From a virus, in IMG/VR virus record IMGVR_UViG_3300020185_000006: a stretch of DNA of 31,873 nt, one strand, 5' to 3'. Shown piece after piece: positions 6,641-27,684 of the stretch. The position numbers and the translations under genes are program-made. The notes below the pieces were generated by a model, which searched no databases, was not told where the DNA came from, and saw nothing but the letters and a program-made list of their open reading frames with translations. Each line of letters opens with the position of its first letter. Positions within the stretch are counted from its first letter, which is position 1.

Positions 6641-6665
6641 TCTTTTTATATTTTATAATTTATAA

Positions 6666-11298: not shown

Positions 11299-11429
11299 TT
11301 TATTTCTCTTTTTAAAACCTTATATGCCTCTTTTAAATTTGTAGGCATCTTATACTTACCTTTGGCAAATTTTATTATTTCCGTTTCCCCTTTTGATTCC
11401 TTTAATAATTCTAAAATTAATTTTATCAT
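11286..11429 (-). CDS. Small ORF, 47 aa: MIKLILELLKESKGETEIIKFAKGKYKMPTNLKEAYKVLKREIKWRL
   Basis: Hand translation. ATGA overlap with the stop of the 720-aa gene. Its end overlaps the tape-measure start by 13 nt. Confidence 0.35.
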   Translation of the reverse strand: MIKLILELLKESKGETEIIKFAKGKYKMPTNLKEAYKVLKREIKWRL

Positions 11430-13588: not shown

Positions 13589-14577
13589 TACCGAACATTA
13601 TTTATATAATCAAAAGCCATATCAAACTCCATTGTATAATCAATCAACTTATCATTCAAGCTAGTCTTATAAGTGAATGAACTTGTATTGATAATTACGG
13701 GAACTATTTGTTCTGTTGATAAATTGTAGGGATCGGGTTGTGTTAGCCAAATTTGTTTACTTAACATTAAGTCTTCAAAGAAAGGATTAGCACCTTCGGG
13801 ATAATACCCACTACTTAAAATTATTTTTTGATTTGCTGATTTATTAAAGACTGCTTTAGTTGGTGAGTTTACAGAGTAGGTAGCAGAACTTCCATTTAAG
13901 GTTATTGTATTAGCATTATAAGTTTCCTTTGTGGAGGTTGTTGTTTTTACACTTTTCAAAAAGAACCACAAGTCTTGCAATGCTCCATATTTATTTACAA
14001 AGGTTATTTTGTTTCCGTTTCCATACTTACTGCAATTAACTCTAATAATGTTAACTAAAACATTACCTGTTGGTGTTGCTAAAGTAATTGTTTGAGGATT
14101 AGTTGCATCAAACCCTGTGTAAGATAAAACGCTATCTGTTGAAACAGGAACAACACCCGATACTCCAATAGGAGCATAAAAGTAATAACCATCTTTAATA
14201 ACATCTTTTTCTATTAACCATTCATAAGTGCTTACAGTTGGATTTACTCCTTCCATAAAAGTGCCGTATCCATCAAACCCTTTGTGAGTTGTTGCACTTG
14301 ATGCGGAACTGCTCCCCGTTCCATTTTGACCACTATAAGATCTATATAAAAAACTTATATCTACTGTTTGTGCAGTATGCGTTCCATTAAAAGCAATGCT
14401 TAAATAGTCCCTTACTAGTTCAGATATTTCATAGGTCAATACAGTTCCAACAGTTCCATTTTTTATAATGTTGTATCTAAGTGTTCCGTTAATACTTAAT
14501 TCTAACCCAACACTATTTATTCCACTTGCAACCGTAACGGTTTCTAATCTTGGTGATCTCAATAAAATGTTTGCCAT
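13588..14577 (-). CDS. Virion structural protein (tail candidate)
   Basis: 329 aa, beta-rich with Thr/Ser/Asn/Gly bias, in the structural block. Confidence 0.4.
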   Translation of the reverse strand: MANILLRSPRLETVTVASGINSVGLELSINGTLRYNIIKNGTVGTVLTYEISELVRDYLSIAFNGTHTAQTVDISFLYRSYSGQNGTGSSSASSATTHKGFDGYGTFMEGVNPTVSTYEWLIEKDVIKDGYYFYAPIGVSGVVPVSTDSVLSYTGFDATNPQTITLATPTGNVLVNIIRVNCSKYGNGNKITFVNKYGALQDLWFFLKSVKTTTSTKETYNANTITLNGSSATYSVNSPTKAVFNKSANQKIILSSGYYPEGANPFFEDLMLSKQIWLTQPDPYNLSTEQIVPVIINTSSFTYKTSLNDKLIDYTMEFDMAFDYINNVR

Positions 14578-14579
14578 AA

Positions 14580-15134
14580 TTATTTTTTTACTCCTAATAC
14601 AATAGAATTTTCTACATCTATCGCAAAGGCATTTATTACTTCGTTAGGTAAATTTTTAAAGGCTTTCTCAAATGGTTTAGTAAAGAACATACTTGGAGTT
14701 ATTCCCGCTAAATATATACTTCTTGTAATTAAGAATTGAGTTGTTTTTCTAGGTAAAAATCTGCCTGTCTTTTTATCTCTTATTCCTTTAATGTTTTTTT
14801 TAACCGTCCATTTATTAATAGCTTTCCTTAATCCTCTGCTCTTCATAGATCCGAATTTATAAGGACTATTCTTTCCTTTCTGAATCCCTTTCCATTTAGC
14901 GTTTTTAGGTAATGCGTTTGGGTTCTTTCCTCTAACTCCCTTATCAACAAATTCTCCGTAACTCTCCATCATAAAGTCTAATAAGAAAGCATTCTGCTCC
15001 TCATCTAGATCATCCTTAATAGAATTGTATAAAGATCCTCCTCCCTTCTTTTGTCTAGTTAGATTACTCTTGCTCTGCTGAACAACGTATTTACCAAACC
15101 TCTCTAAAGCCTCACTTGTTTTAATTAAATCCAT
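14580..15134 (-). CDS. Hypothetical neck or tail-completion protein (HK97 gp10-like pattern)
   Basis: 184 aa. It starts ...FGKYVVQQSKSNLTRQKKGGGSLYNSI... followed by YGEFVDKGV, resembling gp10-family proteins. Weak call by eye. Confidence 0.35.
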   Translation of the reverse strand: MDLIKTSEALERFGKYVVQQSKSNLTRQKKGGGSLYNSIKDDLDEEQNAFLLDFMMESYGEFVDKGVRGKNPNALPKNAKWKGIQKGKNSPYKFGSMKSRGLRKAINKWTVKKNIKGIRDKKTGRFLPRKTTQFLITRSIYLAGITPSMFFTKPFEKAFKNLPNEVINAFAIDVENSIVLGVKK

Positions 15135-15604
15135 TAGCAGTATCTAATATCGTTATAAATAAGAACATCAAAAGTTGATGTCCATCCCGCTAATTCATTT
15201 TCGAATCTATCGTAAAAAGGTTCAAGTGTAGCATTTCCATCAAGCTGATATTTGTCTTGATGTAAGTCTCCTCCCCTAAGAACTTGAATTAACTTATTAG
15301 AAACCGAAAGCTGAGTGTTTAATATATCTTGAAGATTATTATTTCCCCGAAATAGATCAGTTGTCTCCTCCTTGCTTTGGTCAACAATATCCATATTTAG
15401 TATGCTTATACTAAAACGTAAAACACCATCTTCTTGACTTACTTGATTTACCATTAAGTGCGCTAAAGGAAAAATGTCTTGCTTCTCCAAATTAATATCA
15501 TCTAAGTTACCTTGAGTAACTGTTTTAGTATTAACATCAGAAAGTAAATTATCTTTTATAGTTTCTGTTAACTGATAGTATCCTCTTATTCCTTGGTTGC
15601 TCAT
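15134..15604 (-). CDS. Hypothetical neck or tail protein
   Basis: 156 aa. Its ATG forms an ATGA overlap with the stop of the -1-frame extension of the upstream gene. Confidence 0.4.
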   Translation of the reverse strand: MSNQGIRGYYQLTETIKDNLLSDVNTKTVTQGNLDDINLEKQDIFPLAHLMVNQVSQEDGVLRFSISILNMDIVDQSKEETTDLFRGNNNLQDILNTQLSVSNKLIQVLRGGDLHQDKYQLDGNATLEPFYDRFENELAGWTSTFDVLIYNDIRYC

Positions 15605-15865
15605 TTCTTTTTATTTCTTATTTGTTGAGTTTCTACTTCGCTTTTTTCTTTAATAAAGGATAGCATTGTTAAGCATTCGTGTAAATTTAGTTTTGTGATA
15701 TCTTCAAATCTTGTAATATTTCCTTCAGCGAGTGTATAGACTGAGCCATACCACCCCCACTTTTGGGAGAATCCCGATGCGATTGATGTGGTTTCCGATG
15801 ATCCTTCGAAGAGGGACTCGTAACGTGAAGTGATAGATCCTTCCCTAAAAGAAACAAAAAAAAAA
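15601..15865 (-). CDS. -1-frame continuation after the T10 run (85 codons): FVSFREGSITSRYESLFEGSSETTSIASGFSQKWGWYGSVYTLAEGNITRFEDITKLNLHECLTMLSFIKEKSEVETQQIRNKKK. The fused product would be about 245 aa.
   Basis: Hand translation. Composition is ordinary for a protein. Its TGA (15601-15603) overlaps the ATG of the next gene (ATGA), matching the coupling seen throughout the genome. Confidence 0.55.
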
Positions 15866-16337
15866 TAGAACTGATGACCGCATCTAAGGGCATATAAGCC
15901 ATCGAATCCTTATTAAGAGGATTATACTCCTCTATTAAGTATTTATTAGCTGATCGTTGCTTAACGGGTCTATAAAGGACGTTCATTGCAAGACTCATAT
16001 TATCCCAATTACCGATGTAGGTATCTAAGTCAATATATTCTCCTAGTGTTAATTCTTCTAGGTTCGGATGAAACCCGTAGTTAACTCCGTTCATTTTAAA
16101 GAAACGAACTAAATCGGGTTCTTGAGCAAACATCTCTCTTAGTATTTCACTAATATTATCCGCATCTGATATTTGAATCTTTAGAACATCTTTATACTCT
16201 ACGTTGCAAAAGATCTCAATCATCTTGCATTGTAGGGAATACTCATCTTTAGTTTCTGACTCTACTTTTAAGAACCTTTGATATTGGTCTAAGGTTATTT
16301 CTGATAGGTGAGTAGGTATCTTGATACTTGCTTTCAT
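15687..16337 (-). CDS. Tail-assembly-chaperone-like protein, frame-0 product (216 aa)
   Basis: ORF track. The protein reads normally up to ...LDAVISSIFF. It then crosses a T10 run, and the tail turns His/Ser/Pro/Lys-rich and atypical. Confidence 0.5.
   Translation of the reverse strand: MKASIKIPTHLSEITLDQYQRFLKVESETKDEYSLQCKMIEIFCNVEYKDVLKIQISDADNISEILREMFAQEPDLVRFFKMNGVNYGFHPNLEELTLGEYIDLDTYIGNWDNMSLAMNVLYRPVKQRSANKYLIEEYNPLNKDSMAYMPLDAVISSIFFLFLLGKDLSLHVTSPSSKDHRKPHQSHRDSPKSGGGMAQSIHSLKEILQDLKISQN
15856..15865 (-). other. T10 homopolymer (A10 on the plus strand) containing a canonical -1 slippery heptamer T_TTT_TTT
   Basis: Frame 0 reads ATT TTT TTT TTG. A -1 slip gives TTT GTT TCT..., which opens the 85-codon extension. 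Confidence 0.6.
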
Positions 16338-16376
16338 AATAGCATAACGAAATTTTTAATATAATTTATAAGGCAT

Positions 16377-16404
16377 AAAAAAAGGGAGACATTTCTGTCT
16401 ACCC
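16377..16404 (-). terminator. Rho-independent terminator
   Basis: The minus strand reads GGGTAGACA-GAAA-TGTCTCCC followed by TTTTTTT, between 16427..16714 and the 16337 start. Confidence 0.7.
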
Positions 16405-16426
16405 TTTAACCAAACAAAAAAAAATA

Positions 16427-16714
16427 TTATAATAATGCCATCTTTAAATCTCTTTCTAAGTGTGAACACTTTTGCATCCATTCAAGCCTTTGGTTTTGAA
16501 CCTTTGTAATATACTTGTCCCTTTTGTTTACATCATCCCTTAGCCTTGCGGTATAAAAATGCATCTCTCCTAATGCTTTGAGCATAGCCAAAGTTTGTTC
16601 GTTCTTTGGCTTTATTTTTTTCCATTCATTTAGAATATCGGAACAAAGCGTTGCATTACTCCAATACTCTAAATCTCTTATTTCGGTTATCTGTTCCATT
16701 GTTACTGAGTCCAT
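16427..16714 (-). CDS. Hypothetical protein (95 aa)
   Basis: ORF track, on the coding strand, followed by a terminator. Confidence 0.55.
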   Translation of the reverse strand: MDSVTMEQITEIRDLEYWSNATLCSDILNEWKKIKPKNEQTLAMLKALGEMHFYTARLRDDVNKRDKYITKVQNQRLEWMQKCSHLERDLKMALL

Positions 16715-16722
16715 AGGTAAAC

Positions 16723-17085
16723 TTAATAAATACTAATTAAATTATTTAGAATAGGGATAATAACATTATCTCTTTGCCTATAAGTTGAACACTCTTCGTC
16801 ATCGCAATAGATAGCCATCTCATCTATTTCAAATAAATATTCGTAAGTGCCATCATCGGTTCGCATATAACCGTACTCCTCGTAAGTTTCGGCATCGTGA
16901 ATAGTTTTTCTTACGCAGATAACATCCGCAAAAATTTCTATACAACCAATGCTCCAATATAACTCTTCTCGGTGAATCTCATCATCCCCCATTGGGATCT
17001 CCTTTACTTTTAAATCGTGAAGGATATCTTTTAATTCTAAATCTGTAAATAAATCTTTCATCTTTTTTGTGGTTAAGTTAATCAA
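16723..17085 (-). CDS. Hypothetical protein (120 aa, acidic)
   Basis: ORF track. ATGA overlap with the upstream gene. Confidence 0.55.
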   Translation of the reverse strand: MINLTTKKMKDLFTDLELKDILHDLKVKEIPMGDDEIHREELYWSIGCIEIFADVICVRKTIHDAETYEEYGYMRTDDGTYEYLFEIDEMAIYCDDEECSTYRQRDNVIIPILNNLISIY

Positions 17086-17270
17086 TATTTTTTTATTAAT
17101 TCTAGATCGTAATAATCTGCTACATAATTAATGTGCTTCTGAGTAGTGACTGACCAATATCCTAACTGAACTAATTTACCTCCTTGTATTAAGGCAACCT
17201 TTGTAGAATAACTCCACACCTCGTTATTGTGGATTCTTAAGTTTTGCTTGTATTTTTTTAGTGTAATCAT
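17082..17270 (-). CDS. Hypothetical protein (62 aa)
   Basis: ORF track. It is preceded by copy 1 of the conserved hairpin plus an AAACAAAC leader. Confidence 0.5.
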   Translation of the reverse strand: MITLKKYKQNLRIHNNEVWSYSTKVALIQGGKLVQLGYWSVTTQKHINYVADYYDLELIKKY

Positions 17271-17284
17271 TCTTTTTTGTTTGT

Positions 17285-17320
17285 TTAAGTTAAGGGGGTT
17301 TTACCCCCCATTTAATTTAA
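17285..17320 (-). repeat. Conserved intergenic GC-rich hairpin element, copy 1
   Basis: Plus strand TAAGTTAAGGGGGTTTTACCCCCCATTTAATTTAATTG. The stem is GGGGG/CCCCC. Confidence 0.7.
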
Positions 17321-17568
17321 TTGTTAAATGTAAAAATAAAGTCTTTAGGTATTCTTTTTTTACATTCTGATCCTACCCAATGAAATCCTTGATCATCAAT
17401 ACCTTGATCTTCATCAGTATTTATAATATTACCATTTGTTAAAAGATGTACAAAATACTTCTCGTTTTTAACTTCTTTGTTGCAACAAATGCACTCCATA
17501 TCATAACCTCCTTCATCTTGAATTTTACTATAAAAATTCTCTATATCAATTTCTTTAAAATTATTCAT
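17317..17568 (-). CDS. Hypothetical Cys-containing protein (83 aa from the preferred start; the track start 17607 would give 96 aa)
   Basis: The track ATG at 17607 lies inside hairpin copy 2 (ATGGGGGTTAACCACCC). The ATG at 17568 follows the same hairpin plus leader layout as the other two copies. Motifs: CICCNKEV and VGSECKK. Confidence 0.5.
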   Translation of the reverse strand: MNNFKEIDIENFYSKIQDEGGYDMECICCNKEVKNEKYFVHLLTNGNIINTDEDQGIDDQGFHWVGSECKKRIPKDFIFTFNN

Positions 17569-17578
17569 ATCTGTTTTG

Positions 17579-17616
17579 TTTAAGTTAAGAGGGTGGTTAA
17601 CCCCCATTTAATTTAT
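17579..17616 (-). repeat. Conserved intergenic GC-rich hairpin element, copy 2
   Basis: Plus strand TTTAAGTTAAGAGGGTGGTTAACCCCCATTTAATTTATTTA. Confidence 0.7.
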
Positions 17617-17619
17617 TTA

Positions 17620-17847
17620 TCAAGAATATTGTCCTTCGGTAAACATATATTCTTCCCAAAGGTTTTCAATTTTTTTGTTAGTGTCTAAATAGTCAATTAT
17701 TTTGCCATCTTGAATAACACAATAATTGATGGTGTTAATAAGAGAATAGTCTTTAGATATACCAACAACACCCTCATATTTAAGAGATTCTACCTCACAA
17801 GCGTTTAAAAAGTTTATTCTTTCTTGATTTGTTTTTGAAATTTTCAT
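17620..17847 (-). CDS. Hypothetical protein (75 aa), first gene after the terL-proximal intergenic region
   Basis: ORF track, preceded by the conserved leader AAACAAACAAAAACAAGATG. Confidence 0.5.
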   Translation of the reverse strand: MKISKTNQERINFLNACEVESLKYEGVVGISKDYSLINTINYCVIQDGKIIDYLDTNKKIENLWEEYMFTEGQYS

Positions 17848-17905
17848 CTTGTTTTTGTTTGTTTAATTATTAATCTTGATGTGAAGGTAATTGAATAAAG
17901 TTATA
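17848..17905 (-). promoter_or_regulatory. Conserved promoter/leader region, copy B (homologous to 28422..28470)
   Basis: Minus strand AACTTTATTCAATTACCTTCACATCAAGATTAATAATTAAACAAACAAAAACAAG-ATG. It shares the AACTTTAT, CTTCAC and ATTAATAAT.AAACAAACAAAAACAA blocks with the other copy. Confidence 0.35.
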
Positions 17906-17980
17906 AAAAAAAAGTTTTATAAGTTTATTTGCAATTTATTTTGTATTTTGGAAATTATCGGGCTTTGCCAAAAATGACTA

Positions 17981-18024
17981 AGGGTCTAAATAGGATCTAT
18001 TGAGGGTCTAACTAGGGTCTAACT
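17981..18024. repeat. Four direct repeats phased at exactly 11 bp (AGGGTCTAA / AGGATCTAT / AGGGTCTAA / AGGGTCTAA)
   Basis: Units start at 17981, 17992, 18003 and 18014. The last unit contains the terL stop codon (18019-18021). Confidence 0.8.
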
Positions 18025-19185
18025 AATTGTGTATTTCCCGAAATTAGGCTTTGAAAGAAGTGAATAGGTAGCGTATCTGCAAGGGTCTATTAGGTGATTG
18101 TTTTTATCAATAGGAGTATTGATTAACTTTCCTGTTCTATCCTCTTGCCATTTATAGTTGCGGAATTCTTGAATTGCATTAGTAGATGAACTTAATACAT
18201 TAATCTTATATCTCTTTAGTAAGTCTATTCCCGCATTAACGGAGTCCTTACCTTTTACGGAAGGGAAGATCTTGTGACCCATTCTTCTTAACTCATCAAT
18301 AAGTCTAGGTTCTGCTGAGTCGGCATAGATAGGTTTATTATCTAAGTGTTGATCTAGTAAGAACTTGTGTATATCATTAGTAGTCATCTGAGTCCTATAT
18401 AAATGCTCTCTAACGTACAAATTAAAATCTTCTATATAAACACTTATCAATGTGGTTGGATCGTTAGAATAGCCAAAATCCATTCCATAAGATATTAGTT
18501 CTGCCTCTTTAGGAATCTGATCTACTTCGTAATATCTAAAGACAGTAGATCTACTTGAAGACCTCTCCCCTAATCCGTAGATTTGCCAATACTGCTCATC
18601 AGTTTCTTTAAGTCTTTCAATCTCCTTTCGAATACTATCTTCAAGAAAAGGATTATTAAGATAAGTAGTTTTAAAGAAATCACAATCATCACGAGTAATA
18701 ACTTTATCATAAAGCCAATGATATTCTTCACTAGGGTTAAAATCAATTATTATTCTTTCTTGTGTTCTAAAAATTAGTTGTTGCCAATCCTCCCAATACA
18801 ATTCGTTTGCCTCATTTATAAAAAGCAAATCTCTTTTTCTACCTCTTATTTTTTGACTTTGATCTAAGCTAGTAAATTCAACTAAGTTACCAAAAAGATT
18901 ATATTCAGAATTAGACTTGTTGTGATAGTCTTCATTGTAAATCTTATTCGTTCTAAGGATATCTAGAAAATCCCTTAAAACAGTTGCTCTTAAGCTAGGG
19001 AATGTTTTTCTACAGATCGTTATAATCTTACCTTTATTATTAGAACAGTATTCAAATATAATCCAAAGTAAAATGTTGTAAGTTTTACCGCTCCTAGTTC
19101 CACCTTGCTCAACTACTATTTTCTTTTTACTATTTATTAAATGTCTAAAGACAATATTAGTTTTCAGAGTCCTCGATACTATCAA
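18019..19185 (-). CDS. terL: Terminase large subunit (PBSX/Terminase_3-like)
   Basis: 388 aa. Walker A VVEQGGTRSGKTY, LLFINEA Walker B-like segment, nuclease-half pattern (GMDFGYSNDPTTL). It follows terS. Confidence 0.85.
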   Translation of the reverse strand: MIVSRTLKTNIVFRHLINSKKKIVVEQGGTRSGKTYNILLWIIFEYCSNNKGKIITICRKTFPSLRATVLRDFLDILRTNKIYNEDYHNKSNSEYNLFGNLVEFTSLDQSQKIRGRKRDLLFINEANELYWEDWQQLIFRTQERIIIDFNPSEEYHWLYDKVITRDDCDFFKTTYLNNPFLEDSIRKEIERLKETDEQYWQIYGLGERSSSRSTVFRYYEVDQIPKEAELISYGMDFGYSNDPTTLISVYIEDFNLYVREHLYRTQMTTNDIHKFLLDQHLDNKPIYADSAEPRLIDELRRMGHKIFPSVKGKDSVNAGIDLLKRYKINVLSSSTNAIQEFRNYKWQEDRTGKLINTPIDKNNHLIDPCRYATYSLLSKPNFGKYTIS

Positions 19186-19516
19186 TTATTTCTACTTTAA
19201 AATTACTAGGCATTCCATCCGCTCCTGTTATCTCTTGCCTCTCAACGTATCCTCTTTTCTTTCCTCTAGTCTTAAGAAAGAATATTATTTCTGCAGTCCT
19301 ATTACTATCGATATTTTCAAACAATTTACTTTCAACAAAGTCTAAAGCGATATCATCTACACTTACTACTTGCTCAGCAAATTCCTCATCTGTCTTAACC
19401 CATTGATAAAAAGTTGAAGTTCCAACTCCCGCTTTTTTACAAGCAGTTGTTACAACTCCTAATGATTTTCTTAAGGCTTCAAGTACAGCCTTTTTATTGT
19501 GTCCCGTTTTGTCCAT
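19157..19516 (-). CDS. terS: Terminase small subunit
   Basis: 119 aa. N-terminal HTH (VVTTACKKAGVGTSTFYQWVKTDEEF) and a C-terminal FFLKTRGKKRGY pattern. It lies immediately upstream of terL and overlaps it. Confidence 0.7.
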   Translation of the reverse strand: MDKTGHNKKAVLEALRKSLGVVTTACKKAGVGTSTFYQWVKTDEEFAEQVVSVDDIALDFVESKLFENIDSNRTAEIIFFLKTRGKKRGYVERQEITGADGMPSNFKVEIIDSIEDSEN

Positions 19517-20537
19517 TTTTTAACCATTGATTATATATTTGATTACTTATATTTGCCATCATTAAAGGTAGTACAGATCTGCCCATCGTTGTTACGGGAT
19601 TAGTATCTAAGAAATTATAATCCTTCGGGAATGTTGATAATAGCCTAACCTCTTCTTTGTTTAGTTTTCTTTTATAGATAGGATGAACTACACTATAAGC
19701 ACCCGCATTTCCTGTTGTAGCGGTAATAGTCGGACAAGGCTTATTTAAAGAAGGCTTTACTAAATTAAAATGTTTCTTGTGACTAGAACCTATTTCAACT
19801 TCACCCCAAAGTTTATCTAAAGAATATTTAGAAATATCATTTTCAAATATACTCCAATACTTTTTAGTAACATCAAAATTAACTTTAGGTACATCGAAAT
19901 TTAGATTCAGTTTCTTATTCTTAAGATCTTTTCGTGACCCTATTATAAAGACTCTATTCCTTAACTGAGGTAAACCCATCGATGCTGCAAATAAAGAAAA
20001 GACTTGTATATCATAGTCATCAGATAGTCTATTAATAACATTAAGAACGTAAATCTTTGCATTACCTTTTATTATACCGCTTACATTTTCAAGTAGAAAA
20101 ACTTTTGGGTTTAGTTTTTTTATTGTATCCGAATAGATGTAAACCAAATCATCCTTTACTTGTTTAATCCCTTCGTATAAAGATTTCTTTCCCCAAATGT
20201 CTTCTCTAGATCCCGATGTAGAAAATGCTGCGCAAGGAGGAGATCCATCTAATATATCTAAATTGTATAGTTCTTTTGGTAAGTCAGTTCTTTTATTAAA
20301 ATCTCTAATGTCCTCTAAATAAAAATGTTTCGGGTTTAGATTCTTTTTATAGATCTTACTAAAATGCTCAGTAAATTCAACACCACCTAAGTGATCGAAT
20401 CCCGCTAACTTATAACCCATTGTAGAACCTCCCCCGCAAACGAAAGTTCCAAAGACTTTTTTATTATGCTTCTTTACCTTAAGGTCATCTGTTAAATTCC
20501 ATTCTAAAGGAAAAATATTTTCAGTTACTTTCTGCAT
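19494..20537 (-). CDS. C5-cytosine DNA methyltransferase-fold enzyme with an altered cofactor pocket; predicted DNA cytosine-5 carboxymethyltransferase
   Basis: 347 aa. Motifs: I FVCGGGSTMGY, IV GSPPCAAFS (C102; Ala replaces the usual Gln), VI FLLENVSG, VIII LPQLRNRVF, IX EEVRLLSTFPKDY, X TTMGRSVLPLM (R320 replaces the usual Asn of GN). Codons checked by hand: TGC at 20232-20234, AGA at 19578-19580. Confidence 0.85.
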   Translation of the reverse strand: MQKVTENIFPLEWNLTDDLKVKKHNKKVFGTFVCGGGSTMGYKLAGFDHLGGVEFTEHFSKIYKKNLNPKHFYLEDIRDFNKRTDLPKELYNLDILDGSPPCAAFSTSGSREDIWGKKSLYEGIKQVKDDLVYIYSDTIKKLNPKVFLLENVSGIIKGNAKIYVLNVINRLSDDYDIQVFSLFAASMGLPQLRNRVFIIGSRKDLKNKKLNLNFDVPKVNFDVTKKYWSIFENDISKYSLDKLWGEVEIGSSHKKHFNLVKPSLNKPCPTITATTGNAGAYSVVHPIYKRKLNKEEVRLLSTFPKDYNFLDTNPVTTMGRSVLPLMMANISNQIYNQWLKNGQNGTQ

Positions 20538-21166
20538 ATATATCCTTTAAAATTTAGGGATTGAAAGAAGGGTTCTATTTTATTAAATCCCGCTTCTTTA
20601 AGTAGAAGAATATTCTCAGAAGAATTTAATGAGTTCATTATATTTCTTAAGGAAAACTCCTTATCTAAAATTTCCTTTGCGCTAAAGGTTTCTTGCTTAT
20701 TAGTATAATTAGCAAAAGTAAACACTTCTTGAATTACCCCATCTTCACAGATCTCTTTCTCGCAAAAGATAAAAGCACCGTTAGTATTTAAAGATTTATA
20801 AGCCTTAGTTAAAAGATCTAGTCTTTTATTAATATCAATAAACTGAAGAGTAAACACCGAGATGATTAAGTTTGTTTTAATTATCTCGAATTCATCTTTG
20901 GTTATATCCTCTTTAATTAGATTGCAATTCGTTTCTATAAAATTAGAATCAACTATATCATAGCCAATACAATCTATATTATAGGCTTTATTTATCTTAT
21001 CTAATAACCTTCCCGAAGTGCAACCAAGATCAATTACTGTTGTATTCTCTTTAATAAAAAAAGAACACATATTTAGAATTAAATAATCTAGTAAATCGTA
21101 ACCCTTAATAGAATTATTAATGTGATTATCAAAATTCTTAATACTATCAAAACTAAACTTTTCCAT
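20525..21166 (-). CDS. CmoA-like class I SAM-fold protein (predicted carboxy-S-adenosylmethionine synthase)
   Basis: 213 aa. Blocks FSFDSIKNFDNHINNSIKGY, VIDLGCTSG, ISVFTLQFI, LNTNGAFIFCEK and EAGFNKIEPFFQSLNF align along the whole length with E. coli CmoA as I recall it. It overlaps both neighbours (13-14 nt). Confidence 0.65.
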   Translation of the reverse strand: MEKFSFDSIKNFDNHINNSIKGYDLLDYLILNMCSFFIKENTTVIDLGCTSGRLLDKINKAYNIDCIGYDIVDSNFIETNCNLIKEDITKDEFEIIKTNLIISVFTLQFIDINKRLDLLTKAYKSLNTNGAFIFCEKEICEDGVIQEVFTFANYTNKQETFSAKEILDKEFSLRNIMNSLNSSENILLLKEAGFNKIEPFFQSLNFKGYICRK

Positions 21167-21689
21167 AATTCAATAACTTTAAAAGTGCTAACTCTAGATT
21201 AGCATCTAACTTACTTAACGATTCTTTTACAAAAAGATACTCCTCTTGATTGAAGTTTAATTTTAAAACTTGCTCATCCTTAAAGTCATCTAGGTCTACC
21301 TCTTGATCATTATAATCCTTATCACTAAACTCAAAGCTATCAACTCCCCAATCACTTAGTTCGTTAGTCTCCCATTCATTAGCTAAAAGATCCCAATCCC
21401 ATTCTCCGAATCCTACATTGTCTTTGATTATAAACTCTTTTTTTTGTTTATCAGTCCAACCTTCAGCGACATCAACCCAAACTTTTTTTAATCCCGCTTC
21501 TTTACAAGCCTTTAATCTCATATTGCCTCCTAAAACCATCATCGACTCATCTACAACAATAGATCTCTTTTCTAGCATTTCGGGAAACTCCTTAATACTA
21601 TTAACTAGCTTAATGAATTTACCATCTTTTATTACTCTAGGGTTCTTAGGATTACTTAAGACCTCACCTATACTAACTTGCTTTTTCAT
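21153..21689 (-). CDS. ParB-like nuclease (ParB/Srx) domain protein
   Basis: 178 aa. Pattern NPKNPRVI...IKEFPEMLEKRSIVVDESMMVLGGNMRLKACKEAG, then a Trp/acidic-rich linker region of the kind seen N-terminal to phage DNA methylases. Confidence 0.7.
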   Translation of the reverse strand: MKKQVSIGEVLSNPKNPRVIKDGKFIKLVNSIKEFPEMLEKRSIVVDESMMVLGGNMRLKACKEAGLKKVWVDVAEGWTDKQKKEFIIKDNVGFGEWDWDLLANEWETNELSDWGVDSFEFSDKDYNDQEVDLDDFKDEQVLKLNFNQEEYLFVKESLSKLDANLELALLKLLNYGKV

Positions 21690-21856
21690 TTTATCTCTGT
21701 TTGTTCTATAATAAAAGTCTTAGTTTGTCTTATCATTAAATTCTGATCTTTCTTACTTTTAAACGTTTTAGGAATTTTAATATAAATAGCATTAGGATCT
21801 TCCTCTGTAAAATATTCTTTAAACCCATCTATAATTGAATTAAGTAACTTTTTCAT
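21686..21856 (-). CDS. Small ORF, 56 aa: MKKLLNSIIDGFKEYFTEEDPNAIYIKIPKTFKSKKDQNLMIRQTKTFIIEQTEIK
   Basis: Hand translation. It fills the 150-bp gap, and its TGA overlaps the ParB-like ATG (ATGA). Confidence 0.45.
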   Translation of the reverse strand: MKKLLNSIIDGFKEYFTEEDPNAIYIKIPKTFKSKKDQNLMIRQTKTFIIEQTEIK

Positions 21857-22232
21857 ATTTCTCAATTTTCTTTTTTAAATTTTTAACCTTCGTTTCTAAC
21901 ATATGTATTTTATCAAGAGTATCAAGATCTATTGGTTCAAAGCTAAATTGTTTTTCTAACTCTTCTAGCTTTCCATTTTCCTCTTTATAAACCTTATAGT
22001 AATGATGAGAATGAATAATAGTTGCGTGAGTTATTGTTCTACTATTTGCCTTAAAAAATAAACAAATATTAGTCCATCTCAAATTCATCCTCTCTCTAAG
22101 GATGTAAATCAATAATGACCTATAATGAATAACCTCTTTTCTCCTTGTATTTTCAAATACATCAACTCCTGTTTTTTTTATTATCTTATCGCTTACTTCC
22201 TGTGCTGTCATTTTATATTTTTTTAGCTTCAT
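21840..22232 (-). CDS. DnaA domain IV-like DNA-binding protein
   Basis: 130 aa. RRKEVIHYRSLLIYILRERMNLRWTNICLFFKANSRTITHATIIHS matches the DnaA C-terminal HTH signature (R..i..aR.iamYL.re....s...Ig..f.r.HsTv.ha). Confidence 0.55.
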   Translation of the reverse strand: MKLKKYKMTAQEVSDKIIKKTGVDVFENTRRKEVIHYRSLLIYILRERMNLRWTNICLFFKANSRTITHATIIHSHHYYKVYKEENGKLEELEKQFSFEPIDLDTLDKIHMLETKVKNLKKKIEKYEKVT

Positions 22233-22404
22233 TTAATACTTGATTCCAAAACCTATTCTGATGTTTATATCCGCAAACGTAATCAATCATCTTCTCCGAA
22301 AAGATAACAACGCATTTCTTTGCTGACTCTCTATTGATAGATGCCTCATTCATAAACTTAGATATTAATATTTCAGTATAAATAATATAATGTTTTTCTA
22401 TCAC
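22213..22404 (-). CDS. Hypothetical protein (63 aa), paralogue of 22401..22592
   Basis: The two share LIS(R/K)(Y/F)..E......(D/E)SAKK.V.I......Y..Q..FW..V. Confidence 0.55.
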   Translation of the reverse strand: MIEKHYIIYTEILISKFMNEASINRESAKKCVVIFSEKMIDYVCGYKHQNRFWNQVLNEAKKI

Positions 22405-22592
22405 TTTAAATACCTCTTAACTTCTGTCCAAAATTCTATCTGATATCTATAAGGTAAACCCCATTTAAATATCTCATCTATTAAAATCAAAACTCCTTTT
22501 TTTGCAGAATCCTCATCAACACCACATTCGCTAATATATCTGCTGATTAATTTCTGCGCTTGGTCACTTGCATTCTTTTCTCTATCTGTCAT
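22401..22592 (-). CDS. Hypothetical protein (63 aa), paralogue of 22213..22404
   Basis: ORF track. ATGA overlaps on both sides. Confidence 0.55.
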   Translation of the reverse strand: MTDREKNASDQAQKLISRYISECGVDEDSAKKGVLILIDEIFKWGLPYRYQIEFWTEVKRYLK

Positions 22593-22771
22593 AACTCTTT
22601 TTTTAATTTTTCAATATATAACGTTGCATCCATTAGTTCTTCTTGAAGATGAATAAGCCATTCTAAGCTACTCAAATCATTCCTGTCTAATGTCACCCCG
22701 TATTTTTTAATTCCTGTCTCTGATCGTTCTTTAAACCTAGTTAAAACTCTTTCTAATATATTATCTCTCAT
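22589..22771 (-). CDS. Hypothetical protein (60 aa), weak all-alpha NTP-PPase (MazG-like) pattern
   Basis: GIKKYGVTL...WLIHLQEELMDATLYIEKL resembles the EExxD helix of small phage MazG-like proteins. Weak call. Confidence 0.3.
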   Translation of the reverse strand: MRDNILERVLTRFKERSETGIKKYGVTLDRNDLSSLEWLIHLQEELMDATLYIEKLKKEL

Positions 22772-22854
22772 TCGGTTTGTGTAGGTCTATAAAATTTCCA
22801 ATAATTAATATCAATACGCTTAGTGATAGAATCACCAATGCTTTTAAAATCCTT

Positions 22855-23028
22855 TTACATTTCACTATCATAAATTCTCTGTTTTAAGTTTTCAATTTCC
22901 TTATCTAATCTTCTTAACCCTCTAGTTAATCCAACTATTCTTAATTGATCTATACTAGGATCTTGAATCTCTTTTCTTCTTTCTTCCCTAATTCTTAACT
23001 TAGCATTCAACTCTGCATTTAAATTCAT
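22855..23028 (-). CDS. Small coiled-coil ORF, 57 aa: MNLNAELNAKLRIREERRKEIQDPSIDQLRIVGLTRGLRRLDKEIENLKQRIYDSEM
   Basis: Hand translation. ATGA overlap with the FEN gene stop (23025-23028). Confidence 0.4.
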   Translation of the reverse strand: MNLNAELNAKLRIREERRKEIQDPSIDQLRIVGLTRGLRRLDKEIENLKQRIYDSEM

Positions 23029-23726
23029 TCGATTCTTAGTTTTAATAAGTTATAACATTCACTATACTTTTCTTTTGCCTTCCCTCTATACCTCTCTTTA
23101 AAAAGTAAAAATAATTTTTTTCTATACTGATAATCAGTAACGCAATTTTTAAAATATTTTTCAGCAAATTTTTTTCCCTTGCCAAAAAAGTAGTTGACAT
23201 TATCTGATTGATCTCCGACAATCATCTGTTCGTAAAAATTATACATTGCCTCTTCTTTCGTTAAGTCACATAACTCCTTCGTGTGATATCTATAAACTAA
23301 TGCGGGGAATTGAAGATAGTCTTTATCTATACTGACTATCATTACTTGATCTCTTCCCCAAACTTCAATCAGCTTATTCCAATAGATAGCAACTAAATCA
23401 TCTGTCTCCATTCCTACTGCACAATGCGAATCGTAAGTGTCTCTAACGTAATTGTGAATTTCCTGTAAGAGAGGAGGCTTTTTTTGAGTAACTCTATTTG
23501 CCTTATATTTTTTAGTTATAAGTTTCCTAAAGTTTGCCCTTCCATCATTAAAGACTAGGACTTGAGTTACATTATATTGATCGGTTAAGTCATTAATAAT
23601 ACTTTGAAAAACCTCATCAAACTTATAAGTAACATCTTCAATCTTCTCAAAAAACATTCCTTCCTCTCCCTTCGGAGAATAACAACTTGCAAAAATTAAA
23701 CTATCTGCATCTACTAATAAAATCAC
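23025..23726 (-). CDS. 5'-3' exonuclease / flap endonuclease (PIN-like, T4 RNase H / T5 D15 type)
   Basis: 233 aa. Motifs: MILLVDADSLIF, KANR, VGMETDDLVAIY, SIDKDYLQ, GDQSDNV...GKGKKFAEKY. Confidence 0.8.
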   Translation of the reverse strand: MILLVDADSLIFASCYSPKGEEGMFFEKIEDVTYKFDEVFQSIINDLTDQYNVTQVLVFNDGRANFRKLITKKYKANRVTQKKPPLLQEIHNYVRDTYDSHCAVGMETDDLVAIYWNKLIEVWGRDQVMIVSIDKDYLQFPALVYRYHTKELCDLTKEEAMYNFYEQMIVGDQSDNVNYFFGKGKKFAEKYFKNCVTDYQYRKKLFLLFKERYRGKAKEKYSECYNLLKLRIE

Positions 23727-24019
23727 TTTATAGGGATTTGTAAAAAAGGTCCATTAAAATTCATTTGATATTCTTCATCAATATCAAAGCACTCACTTTT
23801 TTTCGCACTAAAAAAAGTTAACCTTTCTTTAATCAAATCTAAAAAGAACATATGCTGATAAGGAGTTGTATTAACATAGAAGTCAACTACATCTTGGTAT
23901 TCTTTTTTAAGAGTAGATTCCTTTTCGGGATTTACTTTTCCGTCTACTATTGTTGGTTCAAATTTTTTGTTTTTCATTATATCTGTTTTTAAGTTGTAAA
24001 TAATCAAGCCAATAGTCAA
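23723..24019 (-). CDS. Hypothetical protein (98 aa; the true start may be the internal ATG at 23977)
   Basis: ORF track. The internal MKNKKFEP start is preceded by a typical CTTAAAAACAGATAT leader. Confidence 0.5.
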   Translation of the reverse strand: MTIGLIIYNLKTDIMKNKKFEPTIVDGKVNPEKESTLKKEYQDVVDFYVNTTPYQHMFFLDLIKERLTFFSAKKSECFDIDEEYQMNFNGPFLQIPIK

Positions 24020-24060
24020 ACCAATTAAATTCTGATGACTTCCTAGCTTTTATATATTTT

Positions 24061-24285
24061 TTATAGGCTGCTTTTAATTCCCATTCTTGAATATCTTTTT
24101 CGATAATCCATTCGTATGACATCATTTAAAAGTTTAGTGGGATAACATTCTTGACAAACTACAAAATCGGGCAATGACTCTAGATCCTCCGAAGAAGATG
24201 CGTGATTCCCGCATTTAGGACACTCGATAACATATAACCCGCTATCGATCTTTTTTCTCTCTCTAAGTAATTTAGATCCGCTCAT
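24061..24285 (-). CDS. Hypothetical zinc-ribbon protein (74 aa)
   Basis: CPKCG ... CQEC pairs. ATGA overlap with the upstream gene. Confidence 0.5.
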   Translation of the reverse strand: MSGSKLLRERKKIDSGLYVIECPKCGNHASSSEDLESLPDFVVCQECYPTKLLNDVIRMDYRKRYSRMGIKSSL

Positions 24286-24494
24286 ATAAATAAACTATAT
24301 TTATCTAAACTCTCTGAAAACTCTCTGACCTCCTTATCGTGCTTTGCAACTAAGCCTGTACAAAACTCCTTAACCTCATCTACATTTTGAATACTTAAAT
24401 TGTTATTAGATGAAAATTCAGCGGAAACTCCCGAATTAAATGAGTAACGAATAATAGTATTTAATACTTCTTCTGTAATGGTGTAACTTTTCAT
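24282..24494 (-). CDS. Hypothetical protein (70 aa)
   Basis: ORF track, coding strand. Confidence 0.5.
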   Translation of the reverse strand: MKSYTITEEVLNTIIRYSFNSGVSAEFSSNNNLSIQNVDEVKEFCTGLVAKHDKEVREFSESLDKYSLFI

Positions 24495-24506
24495 ATCTGC
24501 TTTTTT

Positions 24507-25316: not shown

Positions 25317-25459
25317 CTCCTTATACCGCTTATATTGTTTAGTTTCTTTCTCCTTTCATCACAACCGCAATCTACTCCTGTCTTTCTACTTAAGAAATCA
25401 ACAACCGCTTTAATGCCTGTGTACTTAGTGATGTAAAAAATTAAATCTCCTAGTTTCAT
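25310..25459 (-). CDS. Small ORF, 49 aa: MKLGDLIFYITKYTGIKAVVDFLSRKTGVDCGCDERRKKLNNISGIRRW
   Basis: Hand translation. ATGA overlap with the sigma-factor stop, and its stop overlaps the next ATG. Confidence 0.45.
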   Translation of the reverse strand: MKLGDLIFYITKYTGIKAVVDFLSRKTGVDCGCDERRKKLNNISGIRRW

Positions 25460-25956
25460 AGTATTTTTTTTAGTTTTTCTTTAACTCTTTTAAAGGTATT
25501 GTAAAGAGAGTAATAAGGTATCTTAGTCTTTCTTGCTAAGTCGGCAATACTACTCCCATCATCAATGATTTCGTAAACCTTCTTATCGTACCAAAATAGT
25601 TGGTCTATCTCTACGTTAACCTTTTCTAAGGCTTTATAGTAATCAGTATCATCATCGATATTTACTTCCTCTTTAACGGTTTCTATATTGACAATATAAA
25701 CCTTATTCTCTTTGCGTTTTAGATCCAAAAATAAATTTCGAAGAACTCTAAAAACATAGGAGTAATTAAAATCATTATCACCATATTTGATGTCTAATCC
25801 TTCACTTAGTTTTCTTTGGATCTTGATATACATTTCCTGTACTATATCTTCAGCGGTTTCCTTATTGCAACCAAAAGATTTAACGATGTTAACCCAAGTC
25901 TTGTGATCATCCGCTATCTGATTTAAAATTTTTAAGTAGGTCATATTCTTCTCCAA
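25456..25956 (-). CDS. Sigma-70 family (ECF-like) RNA polymerase sigma factor
   Basis: 166 aa. Region 2 pattern ETAEDIVQEMYIKIQRKL...YVFRVLRNLFLDLKRK. Region 4 HTH SIADLARKTKIPYYSLYNTFKRVKEKLKK. Confidence 0.65.
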   Translation of the reverse strand: MEKNMTYLKILNQIADDHKTWVNIVKSFGCNKETAEDIVQEMYIKIQRKLSEGLDIKYGDNDFNYSYVFRVLRNLFLDLKRKENKVYIVNIETVKEEVNIDDDTDYYKALEKVNVEIDQLFWYDKKVYEIIDDGSSIADLARKTKIPYYSLYNTFKRVKEKLKKIL

Positions 25957-26740
25957 TTACTTCGGGAAGTCCTATCTTGTTTATCTTGAATGAAAACTTT
26001 TCAAAAGGAAACCCTCTGCTCCTCTTACAAGATACATTAACCCGCTCTTTGTGAACTGTGTTTAATTCTAGTTCAATTTGAGTTTCGCATTTCTTTTCTA
26101 AGAAAGAACCGAGATGCCCTGTAGGTTTAGAAGATCCGAAGTTAGAATGAATAACCGTTACAATGTGACACTTATACTTAGCAGTCCATTTCATTAAGTA
26201 CTGCACGCATTGATTGCTTTGCTCCAAATCATTAACATCAGAAACAAGATCAGCTATTCCATCAATAATCACTAAACCAACATCTTTAATCTGATCTAAC
26301 GATTGCTCAATAACTTGTATCTTCTCAAAATAACTTAACTCCCTTAAAGCAAATGTATAATATTTTTCGGTAACTGATGACATATCTACCGCTCTTCGGA
26401 AAACCCTAGAGGAATGGAAGTCACTTTGTTCTGTATCAAAGTGGATTAAACTTCGATCTTGCCTATTGCCTCTTATCTCTCCGCTAAAATGATTATCTCC
26501 TAAGTAGGCTGCTGATAAAAGGCTAATAAAAAAGGTCTTTTTAGATTTTGGAGGTGCTTGTACGAAACTAAAATTGCCATAAGTTCCTATTGGAATTTTA
26601 ACAACCTCATTACCTCTCTTAGTCTTTAATACCGTATTACCTAAAGAGATTGCAATTGGCGGATACTTGACAATATCTAGCGGGTTTATTTGGCATTTCT
26701 TGAGCAATGCCTTTCTCTGTTCTATTGAAAGTTTCTTCAT
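25907..26740 (-). CDS. P-loop NTPase (RecA/DnaB-like, AAA_25-type), replication helicase or loader candidate
   Basis: 277 aa. Degenerate Walker A APPKSKKT, Walker B GLVIIDGIADL, later TVIHSN. Confidence 0.5.
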   Translation of the reverse strand: MKKLSIEQRKALLKKCQINPLDIVKYPPIAISLGNTVLKTKRGNEVVKIPIGTYGNFSFVQAPPKSKKTFFISLLSAAYLGDNHFSGEIRGNRQDRSLIHFDTEQSDFHSSRVFRRAVDMSSVTEKYYTFALRELSYFEKIQVIEQSLDQIKDVGLVIIDGIADLVSDVNDLEQSNQCVQYLMKWTAKYKCHIVTVIHSNFGSSKPTGHLGSFLEKKCETQIELELNTVHKERVNVSCKRSRGFPFEKFSFKINKIGLPEVIGEEYDLLKNFKSDSG

Positions 26741-26797: not shown

Positions 26798-27085
26798 TTA
26801 AAATGGCAAATCGTTTGCTTCTGAGGGCATAGACTCCTCTTTAACTGCCGTTTTAATACTGCCATCTGTCCAATAGATCTTTCCGTTACCAATATACTCC
26901 TTGGCTTTCTTTGCGGATCTCTCTTCTTCTGATTGCGGGATTATTGCAGCAACGTTATTGCCAAATTTTGACTCATCATTTATTGAAATATTGATTAAAC
27001 AATAAACCGCTCCATCCTTTCCTTTATAGAAATTTTCTTGGGGTAGTTTATCTACTCTTAAGTTTATACTTCCTAAACTGCTCAT
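26798..27085 (-). CDS. Small SSB-like protein with an acidic DLPF C-terminal tip
   Basis: 95 aa, ending ...EESMPSEANDLPF, like the D-D-(I/L)-P-F tip of bacterial SSBs. It is coupled (ATGA) to the ERF gene. The OB fold is not verified. Confidence 0.45.
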   Translation of the reverse strand: MSSLGSINLRVDKLPQENFYKGKDGAVYCLINISINDESKFGNNVAAIIPQSEEERSAKKAKEYIGNGKIYWTDGSIKTAVKEESMPSEANDLPF

Positions 27086-27684
27086 ACTAATTGCTCTTTT
27101 AAAGTTTGTTCGATGTCATCTGTTAAGATGAATTTCTCCTTGACATCATTAAGAGAATATCCATTTTTAATTGCTTTTACAACCTTATCGTATCTAGGTG
27201 TATTTTTTAGAAGTTGTACCTTCTTACCTTCGTGATCATTTGTTGCATCAGCATCTTGTGTATCATCAATTAAGAAGAGATTGCCAAGAGCATATTTCTT
27301 TCCGTAAGATGATGCACTACCGAACCTTTGAGGCATTTGCATACCTTTTTGATCCGTGTCTACTCCTACTATTGCAGTTGCTTTTATCCTTTGAACTCCA
27401 TCAGATATAATAGCGGTAGCTTTAATAATGTAGTTATTAAGATACTTTTCTTTTATCTTAACACTTACATCGTATTCTAGTAGAAATGGTTTTACTGCTT
27501 CAAGTATATCCTCCGCTGAGCGAAAGTAATACTTACCAAACGAGTTAAATCTACTCTTCTTCGATTTAAACTTAGTTTGGATTTGTGCTAATTTGTGGTT
27601 AAGTGATATTTCCAATTTTTGATTTTTAAAATTTAACCGTTTCGGGATTTTCCCTAGACTGCAATAACGCTTGTAGCATTGCAA
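27082..27684 (-). CDS. erf: ERF-family single-strand annealing protein (start uncertain)
   Basis: Motifs: FGKYYFRSAEDILEAVKPFLLEYDV and FGSASSYGKKYALGNLFLIDDTQDADA. The N-terminal 20 codons overlap another plausible small ORF. Confidence 0.75.
   Translation of the reverse strand: MQCYKRYCSLGKIPKRLNFKNQKLEISLNHKLAQIQTKFKSKKSRFNSFGKYYFRSAEDILEAVKPFLLEYDVSVKIKEKYLNNYIIKATAIISDGVQRIKATAIVGVDTDQKGMQMPQRFGSASSYGKKYALGNLFLIDDTQDADATNDHEGKKVQLLKNTPRYDKVVKAIKNGYSLNDVKEKFILTDDIEQTLKEQLV

Follow-up and report, generated by a model that had tools for sequence, protein, structure and literature searches.

A predicted CmoA-CmoX DNA carboxymethylation module fused to the terminase genes of a complete small phage genome

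Introduction

The virus record IMGVR_UViG_3300020185_000006 of IMG/VR, a stretch of 31,873 nucleotides to which we refer as the window, carries on its minus strand three overlapping genes that encode a ParB/Srx-like protein, a homolog of CmoA, the synthase of carboxy-S-adenosyl-L-methionine (Cx-SAM), and a protein of the DNA cytosine C5-methyltransferase (C5-MTase) family, directly before the genes of the small and the large terminase subunit (terS, terL). With a probability of about 0.85 these three genes constitute a module for DNA carboxymethylation by CmoA and CmoX like that of Synechococcus phage S-B43, predicted to write 5-carboxymethylcytosine (5cxmC) into the phage DNA. Four lines of evidence carry this assignment: both enzymes are homologous over their full length to the characterized S-B43 enzymes, the residues contacting Cx-SAM are conserved, an Arg in motif X of the transferase strictly co-occurs with cmoA among its relatives, and the genome encodes no homolog of the ligase that processes 5cxmC further in S-B43.

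For S-B43, the CmoA-CmoX system has been established by biochemical assays, by a structure and by analysis of virion DNA (Yang et al., Nat Commun, December 2025; PMC12783734). SpCmoA synthesizes Cx-SAM with a kcat of 2.33 s-1, ten times that of Escherichia coli CmoA, and SpCmoX uses Cx-SAM, but not S-adenosyl-L-methionine (SAM), to form 5cxmC at GC sites (PMC12783734). In the 1.9 Å structure of SpCmoX with Cx-SAM (8YF3), R350, the equivalent of N304 in M.HhaI, contacts the carboxymethyl group, and the R350N variant is inactive (PMC12783734). A third enzyme, the asparagine-synthetase-like, AMP-forming ligase CmoY, converts 5cxmC into its glycine amide (PMC12783734). A survey of IMG/VR, UniProt and MGnify, with the SPPC motif and an Arg at the R350 position as criteria, returned 5,615 CmoX candidates, which had 4,257 CmoA, 2,251 ligase and 1,660 ParBc neighbours (PMC12783734). 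The transferase of the window (347 amino acids; aa) has both SPPC and the Arg and is present in IMG/VR, and it may be one of the 5,615.

PMC12783734 thus already describes 5cxmC as a natural base, CmoA and CmoX as a pair, the Arg as determinant and ParBc as a neighbour, and no other primary papers on natural phage CmoX were found in the literature. The present work followed up an original prediction, made from the letters of the window alone, that a Cx-SAM synthase and a C5-MTase with a remodelled cofactor pocket jointly produce 5cxmC in this phage. This reading is supported by the published S-B43 enzymes, by the preserved cofactor contacts and by the strict Arg/cmoA co-occurrence, while its claim to novelty did not outlive December 2025. 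That the inference was correct indicates that such an approach works.

The C5-transferase and its cofactor pocket

The 347-aa protein, encoded at 19494..20537 on the minus strand, is predicted to be a CmoX-type DNA cytosine C5-carboxymethyltransferase. It matches the Pfam family PF00145 with E=4e-40 including the ENV and QxRxR motifs, and the family motifs are found at residues 32-38 (FVCGGGS), 99-106 (SPPCAAFS), 148-152 (LLENV), 191-195 (QLRNR), 300-304 (LSTFP) and 318-324 (MGRSVLP). Its best sequence match in the PDB is SpCmoX itself (8yf3_A, E=2.8e-30), and the same structure is the top fold match (E=1.3e-21) of its AlphaFold2 (AF2) model, which has a predicted local distance difference test score (pLDDT) of 90.3. 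In direct comparison, SpCmoX is 32% identical over window residues 28-339 (E=1e-38).

The alignments place the residues of catalysis and cofactor binding. The SPPC residues 99-102 align with S95-C98 of SpCmoX, so that Cys102 of motif IV (codon 20232..20234, minus strand), the predicted nucleophile on cytosine C6, corresponds to C98 of SpCmoX and C81 of M.HhaI. Arg320 in the 'GR' of motif X (codon 19578..19580, minus strand) corresponds to R350 of SpCmoX by BLASTP, by phmmer to 8yf3 and by MAFFT, with GRSVLPLMM of the window aligned to GRMVPPLMM of SpCmoX, and to N304 of M.HhaI; it does not vary across 40 aligned homologs and is predicted to bind the carboxylate of Cx-SAM and thereby to determine the cofactor. 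The SpCmoX contacts to Cx-SAM, F25, E47, F48, D69, C98 and R350, are all kept in the window enzyme as F32, E54, F55, D76, C102 and R320. The M.HhaI sequence was used as a positional guide, and its numbering agrees with C81, Q82 and N304 and with the length of 327 residues.

The original prediction had placed A103 (codon 20229..20231, minus strand) and R320 at the M.HhaI positions Q82 and N304. The alignment agrees for both, and the equivalence of N304 with SpCmoX R350 is also drawn in the S-B43 study (PMC12783734). It had moreover stated, correctly, that a substitution of N374 turned M.MpeI into a DNA carboxymethyltransferase; the parallel to this engineered N374K enzyme (Wang and Kohli 2021) is pointed out in PMC12783734.

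The Cx-SAM synthase homolog

The 213-aa protein, encoded at 20525..21166 on the minus strand, is predicted to be a phage-type CmoA converting SAM and prephenate to Cx-SAM and phenylpyruvate. Its top NCBIfam matches are both CmoA equivalog models, matched over the full length; TIGR00740 aligns residues 4-213 with profile positions 15-239 of 239 at E=1.2e-24, and generic Pfam methyltransferase families match weakly. The sequence matches in the PDB comprise CmoA/YecO structures only, with 1im8, 4gek and 4iwn at E=7e-18 to 4e-16, and SpCmoA is 33% identical over residues 4-213 (E=7e-38). The six best fold matches of the AF2 model (pLDDT 85.5) are all CmoA structures, with template modelling (TM) scores of 0.81-0.85. 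Along the chain we find FDSIKNFDNHINNSIKGY at residues 6-23, the SAM-binding motif I VIDLGCTSG at 44-52, SVFTLQF at 103-109, NGAFIFCEK at 129-137, DKE at 168-170, LRN at 173-175, EAGF at 191-194 and FFQSLNF at 200-206. The resemblance to CmoA along the whole length, which had been proposed by eye, is therefore borne out by TIGR00740, by SpCmoA and by the CmoA structures alike, and every motif quoted for the module in the original prediction is present at a definite position.

Co-occurrence of Arg at motif X with cmoA

Genomic evidence for the cofactor comes from a comparison of 181 relatives of the 347-aa protein, for which the motif-X residue and the neighbouring genes were scored at 97 loci from IMG/VR and 80 loci from genomes of GTDB. 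The majority, 160 enzymes (the Met-type enzymes of the sets L002-L007, L026-L104 and L112-L190), have a Met at motif X. In IMG/VR, all 17 intact loci of Arg-type enzymes contain cmoA, two more of the 19 being cut by the contig edge upstream of the gene, and none of the 78 Met-type loci does; in GTDB the single Arg-type locus has cmoA, together with a ParB gene, and the 76 Met-type loci have none. The six cultured Met-type phages were not among the cmoA matches either. The enzymes of these phages, Rhodobacteraceae phage MD05, Bacillus phage BMBtp14, Cellulophaga phi18:3, a Bacteroides LoVEphage, and the Flavobacterium phages tooticki and FPSV, are the closest relatives from cultured phages, 39-42% identical to the window enzyme; all of them contain SPPCS, and their motif X has Met, in 'GMSVPP'. 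Taken together, cmoA is present at 19/19 intact Arg-type loci and at 0/160 Met-type loci (Fisher p=5e-26), a p value that overstates the independence of the loci, given that the Arg-type enzymes fall into only about three lineages. The survey of cmoA against motif-X variants that the original prediction had proposed thus gives a clear separation.

Position 320 is the sole column common to all Arg lineages, i.e., the window clade, SpCmoX and the locus L082 (IMGVR_UViG_2077657008_000038, match 6001-7050), and absent from the 160 Met-type enzymes. As judged from these alignments, Arg at motif X is the predicted cofactor-discriminating feature in this clade, occurring with cmoA where Met never does, so that a quantitative rule emerges by which the cofactor can be read from the sequence. 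The second pocket residue does not share this property. The change of PCQ to PCA had been offered as further evidence of carboxymethyl transfer, an argument that fails: the residue following the catalytic Cys is Ser in 152 and Thr in 8 of the Met-type enzymes, Ser in SpCmoX, Lys in L082, and Ala in the window clade only. Since a small residue is found at this position clade-wide, including the 160 Met-type enzymes lacking cmoA, A103 is a clade trait without diagnostic value, and it was rejected as a second cofactor determinant.

These data also bear on the alternative that the 347-aa protein is an ordinary SAM-dependent enzyme forming 5-methylcytosine (5mC), or one accepting both cofactors, and that the CmoA-like protein drains host SAM to counter defences or serves tRNA modification. 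The window enzyme is indeed nested among the Met-type enzymes, which presumably are ordinary SAM-dependent enzymes transferring methyl groups to give 5mC, the engineered M.MpeI N374K retains a methyltransferase scaffold, and a depletion of SAM was raised as a possible side effect in S-B43 (PMC12783734). We nevertheless regard this alternative as very improbable: cmoA accompanies Arg, and never Met, across three Arg lineages, wild-type SpCmoX accepts Cx-SAM only and is dead as R350N (PMC12783734), and searches with Pfam, NCBIfam and PHROG annotation revealed no gene for a CmoB-like tRNA transferase in the window. A CmoA-CmoX pair dedicated to DNA remains the reading that we prefer.

The Met-type clade itself departs from canonical C5-MTases in having Met in place of Asn at motif X, combined with SPPC[S/T], and it is very common in Bacteroidota and Bacillus prophages. 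In comparison with it the window clade shows further signatures: position 55 holds Phe instead of Ile, in agreement with F48 of SpCmoX, a residue that stacks on the adenine; T56 stands where the Met-type enzymes have a near-invariant Asp; motif VIII reads QLRNR instead of QxRER; and motif X reads GRSVLP instead of SVPP. Arg-type enzymes appear to be rarer than Met-type enzymes in bacterial genomes. Among the 80 GTDB matches a single locus, L111 (JAZKZG010000116.1), is of the Arg type; it has ParB and cmoA and lies on a 44-kb contig in a bin of a metagenome-assembled genome assigned to Eubacteriales. Its enzyme is 58% identical to that of the window, and the contig may come from a phage and have been binned wrongly, rather than represent a prophage of Firmicutes.

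Complete genome and predicted end product

The first 127 bases of the window are identical to its last 127 (31747-31873), which shows that the contig is circularly closed and represents the complete genome, about 31,746 bp long, of an uncultured phage. Only one open reading frame (ORF) crosses the junction, an 862-aa tail fibre gene that runs from 30946 to 1788 on the minus strand and was missed by the ORF lister. The genome has a GC content of about 32% and is that of a small tailed phage, encoding a tape measure protein, a portal protein, Erf, an exonuclease and NinG. At the nucleotide level, the only similarities were to genes for MTases in phages of Flavobacterium, Cellulophaga and Bacteroides, which suggests a host among the Bacteroidota.

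The completeness of the genome matters for the end product, as a search with SpCmoY (tblastn) found no match in it. Likewise, no amide ligase or asparagine-synthetase-like protein was detected by PHROG searches on the 20 larger ORFs, by Pfam searches on the neighbouring genes or in the ORF across the circularised junction. As a positive control, the same search detected a CmoY homolog at L082 (E=1.8e-45), an Arg-type locus that carries Lys after the catalytic Cys and has cmoA (E=1.5e-37) beside this ligase gene. Because the complete genome lacks CmoY, the predicted end product is bare 5cxmC.

An alternative is that 5cxmC is an intermediate in the window phage as well, elaborated to an amide or another hypermodification by a non-homologous enzyme of phage or host, in analogy to CmoY. 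S-B43 virions contain the glycine amide only and no 5cxmC, the ligases of such systems belong to several families with different predicted amines (PMC12783734), and many small ORFs of the window have no known function. Opposed to this are the lack of any SpCmoY-like or asparagine-synthetase-like match in the complete genome, the nature of the ORFs of unknown function of at least 200 aa, each of which either belongs to the structural module or has an AAA_25 or exonuclease domain, and the loci of the window-clade relatives, which gave no ligase match within 6 kb in a search that did find the ligase of L082. We assign this alternative a low probability and retain bare 5cxmC as the likely final mark. 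The small, complete and ligase-less genome is therefore a good candidate for bare 5cxmC as the final mark in virions and for a second CmoX specificity.

Weighing the assignment

Several observations weigh against the assignment of the module. The validated enzymes are only 32-33% identical to those of the window, and it is by analogy to them that we infer what the enzymes of this phage do, their product, their target motif and a role against restriction. Met-type enzymes, with identities of up to ~49-52%, resemble the transferase more closely than SpCmoX does, so that a strict selectivity for Cx-SAM rests on one residue and the genomic context. For the synthase, the score against TIGR00740 is 87.3 bits at a curated equivalog cutoff of 193.3, and the full-length match to the second model, NF011995 (E=1.3e-18), reaches 67.4 bits at a cutoff of 285. 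The fold search separates CmoA only weakly from other class-I methyltransferases, as the TM score is 0.82 for both. Furthermore, the 213-aa protein is a CmoA homolog without Arg at the position of R199 in E. coli CmoA, a non-homologous enzyme acting after CmoX could be encoded among the small ORFs without known function, and the tetranucleotides GGCC and CGCG are fully avoided in the genome despite containing GC.

The scores below the equivalog cutoffs mark the 213-aa protein as a member of a divergent CmoA subfamily rather than as an ortholog of the bacterial enzyme. The profile searches do not place it among generic methyltransferases, since the CmoA equivalog models ranked first even though the cutoffs were not reached. 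Full-length homology and motif I are kept; Arg-199 is replaced by Glu.

This replacement deserves attention because Arg-199 is the only residue of E. coli CmoA that contacts the carboxylate of Cx-SAM (PMC4482062). It falls in the helix segment E170-F-S-L-R174 (20645..20659, minus strand; located by the alignments, with the codons checked), in which E170 aligns with Arg-199 and R174, one helical turn further on, with Glu-203 of the E. coli enzyme. The sequence of the latter served as a positional guide, and its numbering of Phe-133 and Arg-199 agrees with PMC4482062. The original prediction had noted as a caveat that the Arg of the CmoA motif QKR aligns to DKE in the phage protein, with an Arg further on. 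The catalytically active SpCmoA has the same E...R arrangement (IMDKEKELRDML), neither E170 nor R174 varies in an alignment of 40 sequences, and Glu at the R199 position combined with Arg at the E203 position occurs in 121 of 123 aligned sequences, SpCmoA included. The caveat is therefore resolved: as SpCmoA is active without it, Arg-199 is not a defining feature of activity among phage-type CmoA enzymes. To judge from the sequences, the exchange of R199 and E203 looks like a conserved charge swap between positions i and i+4 of one helix. One may speculate that it is linked to the higher turnover of phage CmoA enzymes, which it might help to explain, or to an altered affinity for the product.

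The avoidance of palindromes was considered for what it might reveal about the target. CATG is absent from the genome (70±7 in shuffles), CCGG occurs once (5880-5883; 21±4 expected), and CGCG and GGCC are absent (~16 and ~10 expected, respectively), while GCGC, GATC and TTAA are found at expected levels. GGCC is absent or nearly so in 6/7 Arg-type relatives, the other palindrome patterns varying among them. This avoidance probably mirrors host restriction systems that lie outside the cover of the modification. Since blanket protection of GC would render avoidance of GGCC and CGCG needless, there is a weak hint that the target differs from GC or is narrower, or that protection is incomplete. 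For the window and its relatives the statistics provide this weak negative hint against blanket GC protection and nothing more; they yielded no motif, in line with the original statement that the sequence does not reveal the target.

On balance, the following mechanism is proposed. The ParB, CmoA and CmoX genes would be transcribed together with terS and terL and be translationally coupled. The CmoA homolog would use SAM and prephenate of the host to synthesize Cx-SAM. The CmoX homolog would flip out its target cytosine, whose C6 would be attacked by Cys102; the resulting C5 carbanion would accept the carboxymethyl group of Cx-SAM, its carboxylate held by Arg320, and beta-elimination would release 5cxmC. 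In the absence of a CmoY-type ligase this mark, not the glycine amide of S-B43, would probably be final, and most likely it would block restriction by the host. The ParB-like protein, as a general partner of the clade, would probably help the transferase to engage DNA.

Comparison with known systems

The closest known system is that of S-B43. Both core enzymes are full-length homologs (32-33% identity), the Cys of SPPC, the Arg of motif X, all named Cx-SAM contacts and the E/R arrangement of CmoA are the same, and the ParBc neighbour of the window is among the contexts reported in PMC12783734. The differences are nevertheless considerable. S-B43 is a 214-kb cyanomyovirus, while the window phage is small and siphovirus-like (~31.7 kb, 32% GC) with a probable Bacteroidota host. 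CmoY is present in S-B43, where the product is 5-glycylcarboxymethylcytosine, and missing from the complete genome of the window, where 5cxmC is the predicted end product. The gene order is unlike that of S-B43, the module of the window being fused to terS and terL. Within the transferases, the residue following the catalytic Cys is Ser in SpCmoX and Ala in the window enzyme, and the target-recognition region of the latter is shorter, divergent and alignable only with gaps, for which reason GC specificity cannot be assumed. Moreover, the window clade groups with the Met-type enzymes in the tree and not with SpCmoX.

M.MpeI N374K shares with the window enzyme the principle that a basic residue at the position of the motif-X Asn allows a C5-MTase scaffold to use Cx-SAM. 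It is however an engineered enzyme with a CpG target that depends on the CmoA of its E. coli host, whereas the window enzyme is natural, has Arg instead of Lys and is accompanied by its own synthase.

The closest relatives by sequence (39-52% identity) are the C5-MTases of phages and prophages with the pattern SPPCS...GMSVPP, for example those of Cellulophaga phage phi18:3 and of the Flavobacterium phages FpV and tooticki. They share the small residue after the Cys, and often have a ParB-like gene before them and terminase genes nearby; they differ in the Met at motif X, in the Ile at window position 55 and in the cmoA neighbour, present at 0/160 loci. For the synthase, the bacterial CmoA/CmoB pathway of tRNA cmo5U34 (5-carboxymethoxyuridine at position 34) modification (E. 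coli, 4GEK, PMC4482062) provides the same fold and most of the sequence over the full length. On the phage side, CmoB is missing, the acceptor is DNA, Arg-199 and Glu-203 are swapped and the score stays below the NCBIfam cutoff.

Evolution of the Arg state

A neighbour-joining (NJ) tree of 334 alignment columns with 100 bootstrap replicates and M.HhaI as outgroup, a small sample that is not decisive, placed SpCmoX outside a 100%-supported clade of all other sequences. The Arg clade of the window comes out as monophyletic (100%), embedded in Met-type sequences, and L082 falls within a different Met-type subclade (95%). As the window clade and L082 nest in separate Met-type groups and SpCmoX lies outside, the tree suggests repeated switching, in which the Met/Arg state and the linkage to cmoA would have changed at least two or three times, with an independent origin of the Arg state of L082. 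Such a repeated switch between methyl and carboxymethyl transfer would leave natural pairs of Met- and Arg-type enzymes with 45-52% identity, usable for engineering. A combined scenario, in which the module arose convergently in a Met-type lineage by a single Met-to-Arg change and simultaneous gain of cmoA, produces terminal 5cxmC at a target other than GC, and relies on a charge swap in CmoA that perhaps relieves product inhibition and allows Cx-SAM supply at the scale of a genome, is tentative, and we consider it somewhat more doubtful than probable.

The ParB-like gene and the layout of the locus

The first gene of the module (21153..21689, minus strand) encodes a ParB/Srx-like (ParBc) accessory protein of 178 aa with the ParB box 'LGGNMRLKA' followed by an acidic C-terminal half. 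It matches the PHROG ParB-like and MTase-N-terminal families 17622, 498 and 620 with E=7e-26 to 1e-24 or 7e-24, of which phrog_498 represents the N-terminal region of ParB-MTase fusions. In Pfam, ParB_N (PF02195) is matched with E=0.0038 and 17.7 bits, under the gathering cutoff of 26.3, and in the PDB a weak match to the ParB structure 4umk was obtained. The strong PHROG matches agree with the original description of a ParB/Srx-type domain known from fusions to methylases.

ParB homologs adjoin Arg-type enzymes at 15/19 and Met-type enzymes at 38/78 of the IMG/VR loci, as well as Met-type enzymes at 29/76 GTDB loci. Since Met-type enzymes have such a gene too, it is not a part specific to the carboxymethyl system, and ParB was discarded as a marker of carboxymethylation. 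The protein is a general partner of the MTase clade of the window that probably aids in engaging DNA, perhaps by loading or targeting the transferase.

The three ORFs of 178, 213 and 347 aa overlap by 14 nt (ParB/CmoA) and 13 nt (CmoA/MTase), and the last of them overlaps terS (19157..19516, minus strand; Pfam Sf6_terminase) by 23 nt; terS in turn overlaps terL (18019..19185, minus strand; Terminase_3/3C/6N). The 3' end of the module thus runs into the packaging genes in the order terS, terL, which provide context and not chemistry. The coordinates of the three genes and their position directly before the terminase genes match the original description exactly, and both terminase genes were confirmed by Pfam. 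A scan of 17500..24500 found no terminator-like sites on the minus strand, and promoter-like matches in the promoter and terminator scan showed no excess over the shuffled background. Given that the genes overlap and terminators are absent, module, terS and terL appear to form one transcription unit with translational coupling. More than 20 independent contigs of 20-35 kb from metagenomes, and two contigs of IMG/VR, carry the same five genes in a row, with a 347-aa protein identical to that of the window. PADLOC reported generic MTase families only for the window, and no defence-system context.

This layout could be taken to mean that the module mainly marks DNA for processes of the phage itself, such as discrimination during packaging or the timing of transcription, with the ParB-like protein as reader or loader and anti-restriction as a secondary effect. 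The overlapping string with terS and terL, the wide distribution of ParB-like partners in the clade and the full avoidance of several restriction sites by the genome fit such a role. The support is indirect, 5cxmC blocks HhaI in vitro (PMC12783734), and Met-type relatives, e.g., those of Bacillus phage BMBtp14 and Rhodobacteraceae phage MD05, are located near terminase genes as well, which renders a primarily self-marking function highly unlikely in our view; protection against host restriction is the more plausible role of the predicted 5cxmC.

Outside the module, the gene order of the genome is unusual. In the stretch 8908-19185, terS and terL are followed by tail genes including the tape measure gene (8908-11298). 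Beyond these lie a gene for a protease-like protein (7962-8873), a gene that probably encodes the capsid and, last of all and some 14 kb away from terL, the portal gene (2364-4391). The early or replication region contains an AAA_25 ATPase gene (25907-26740), Erf (27082-27684) and NinG (28616-28996); next to the ATPase gene, an ORF of 166 aa (25456-25956) weakly matches sigma-70 region 2 and a PHROG of phage RNA polymerase sigma factors.

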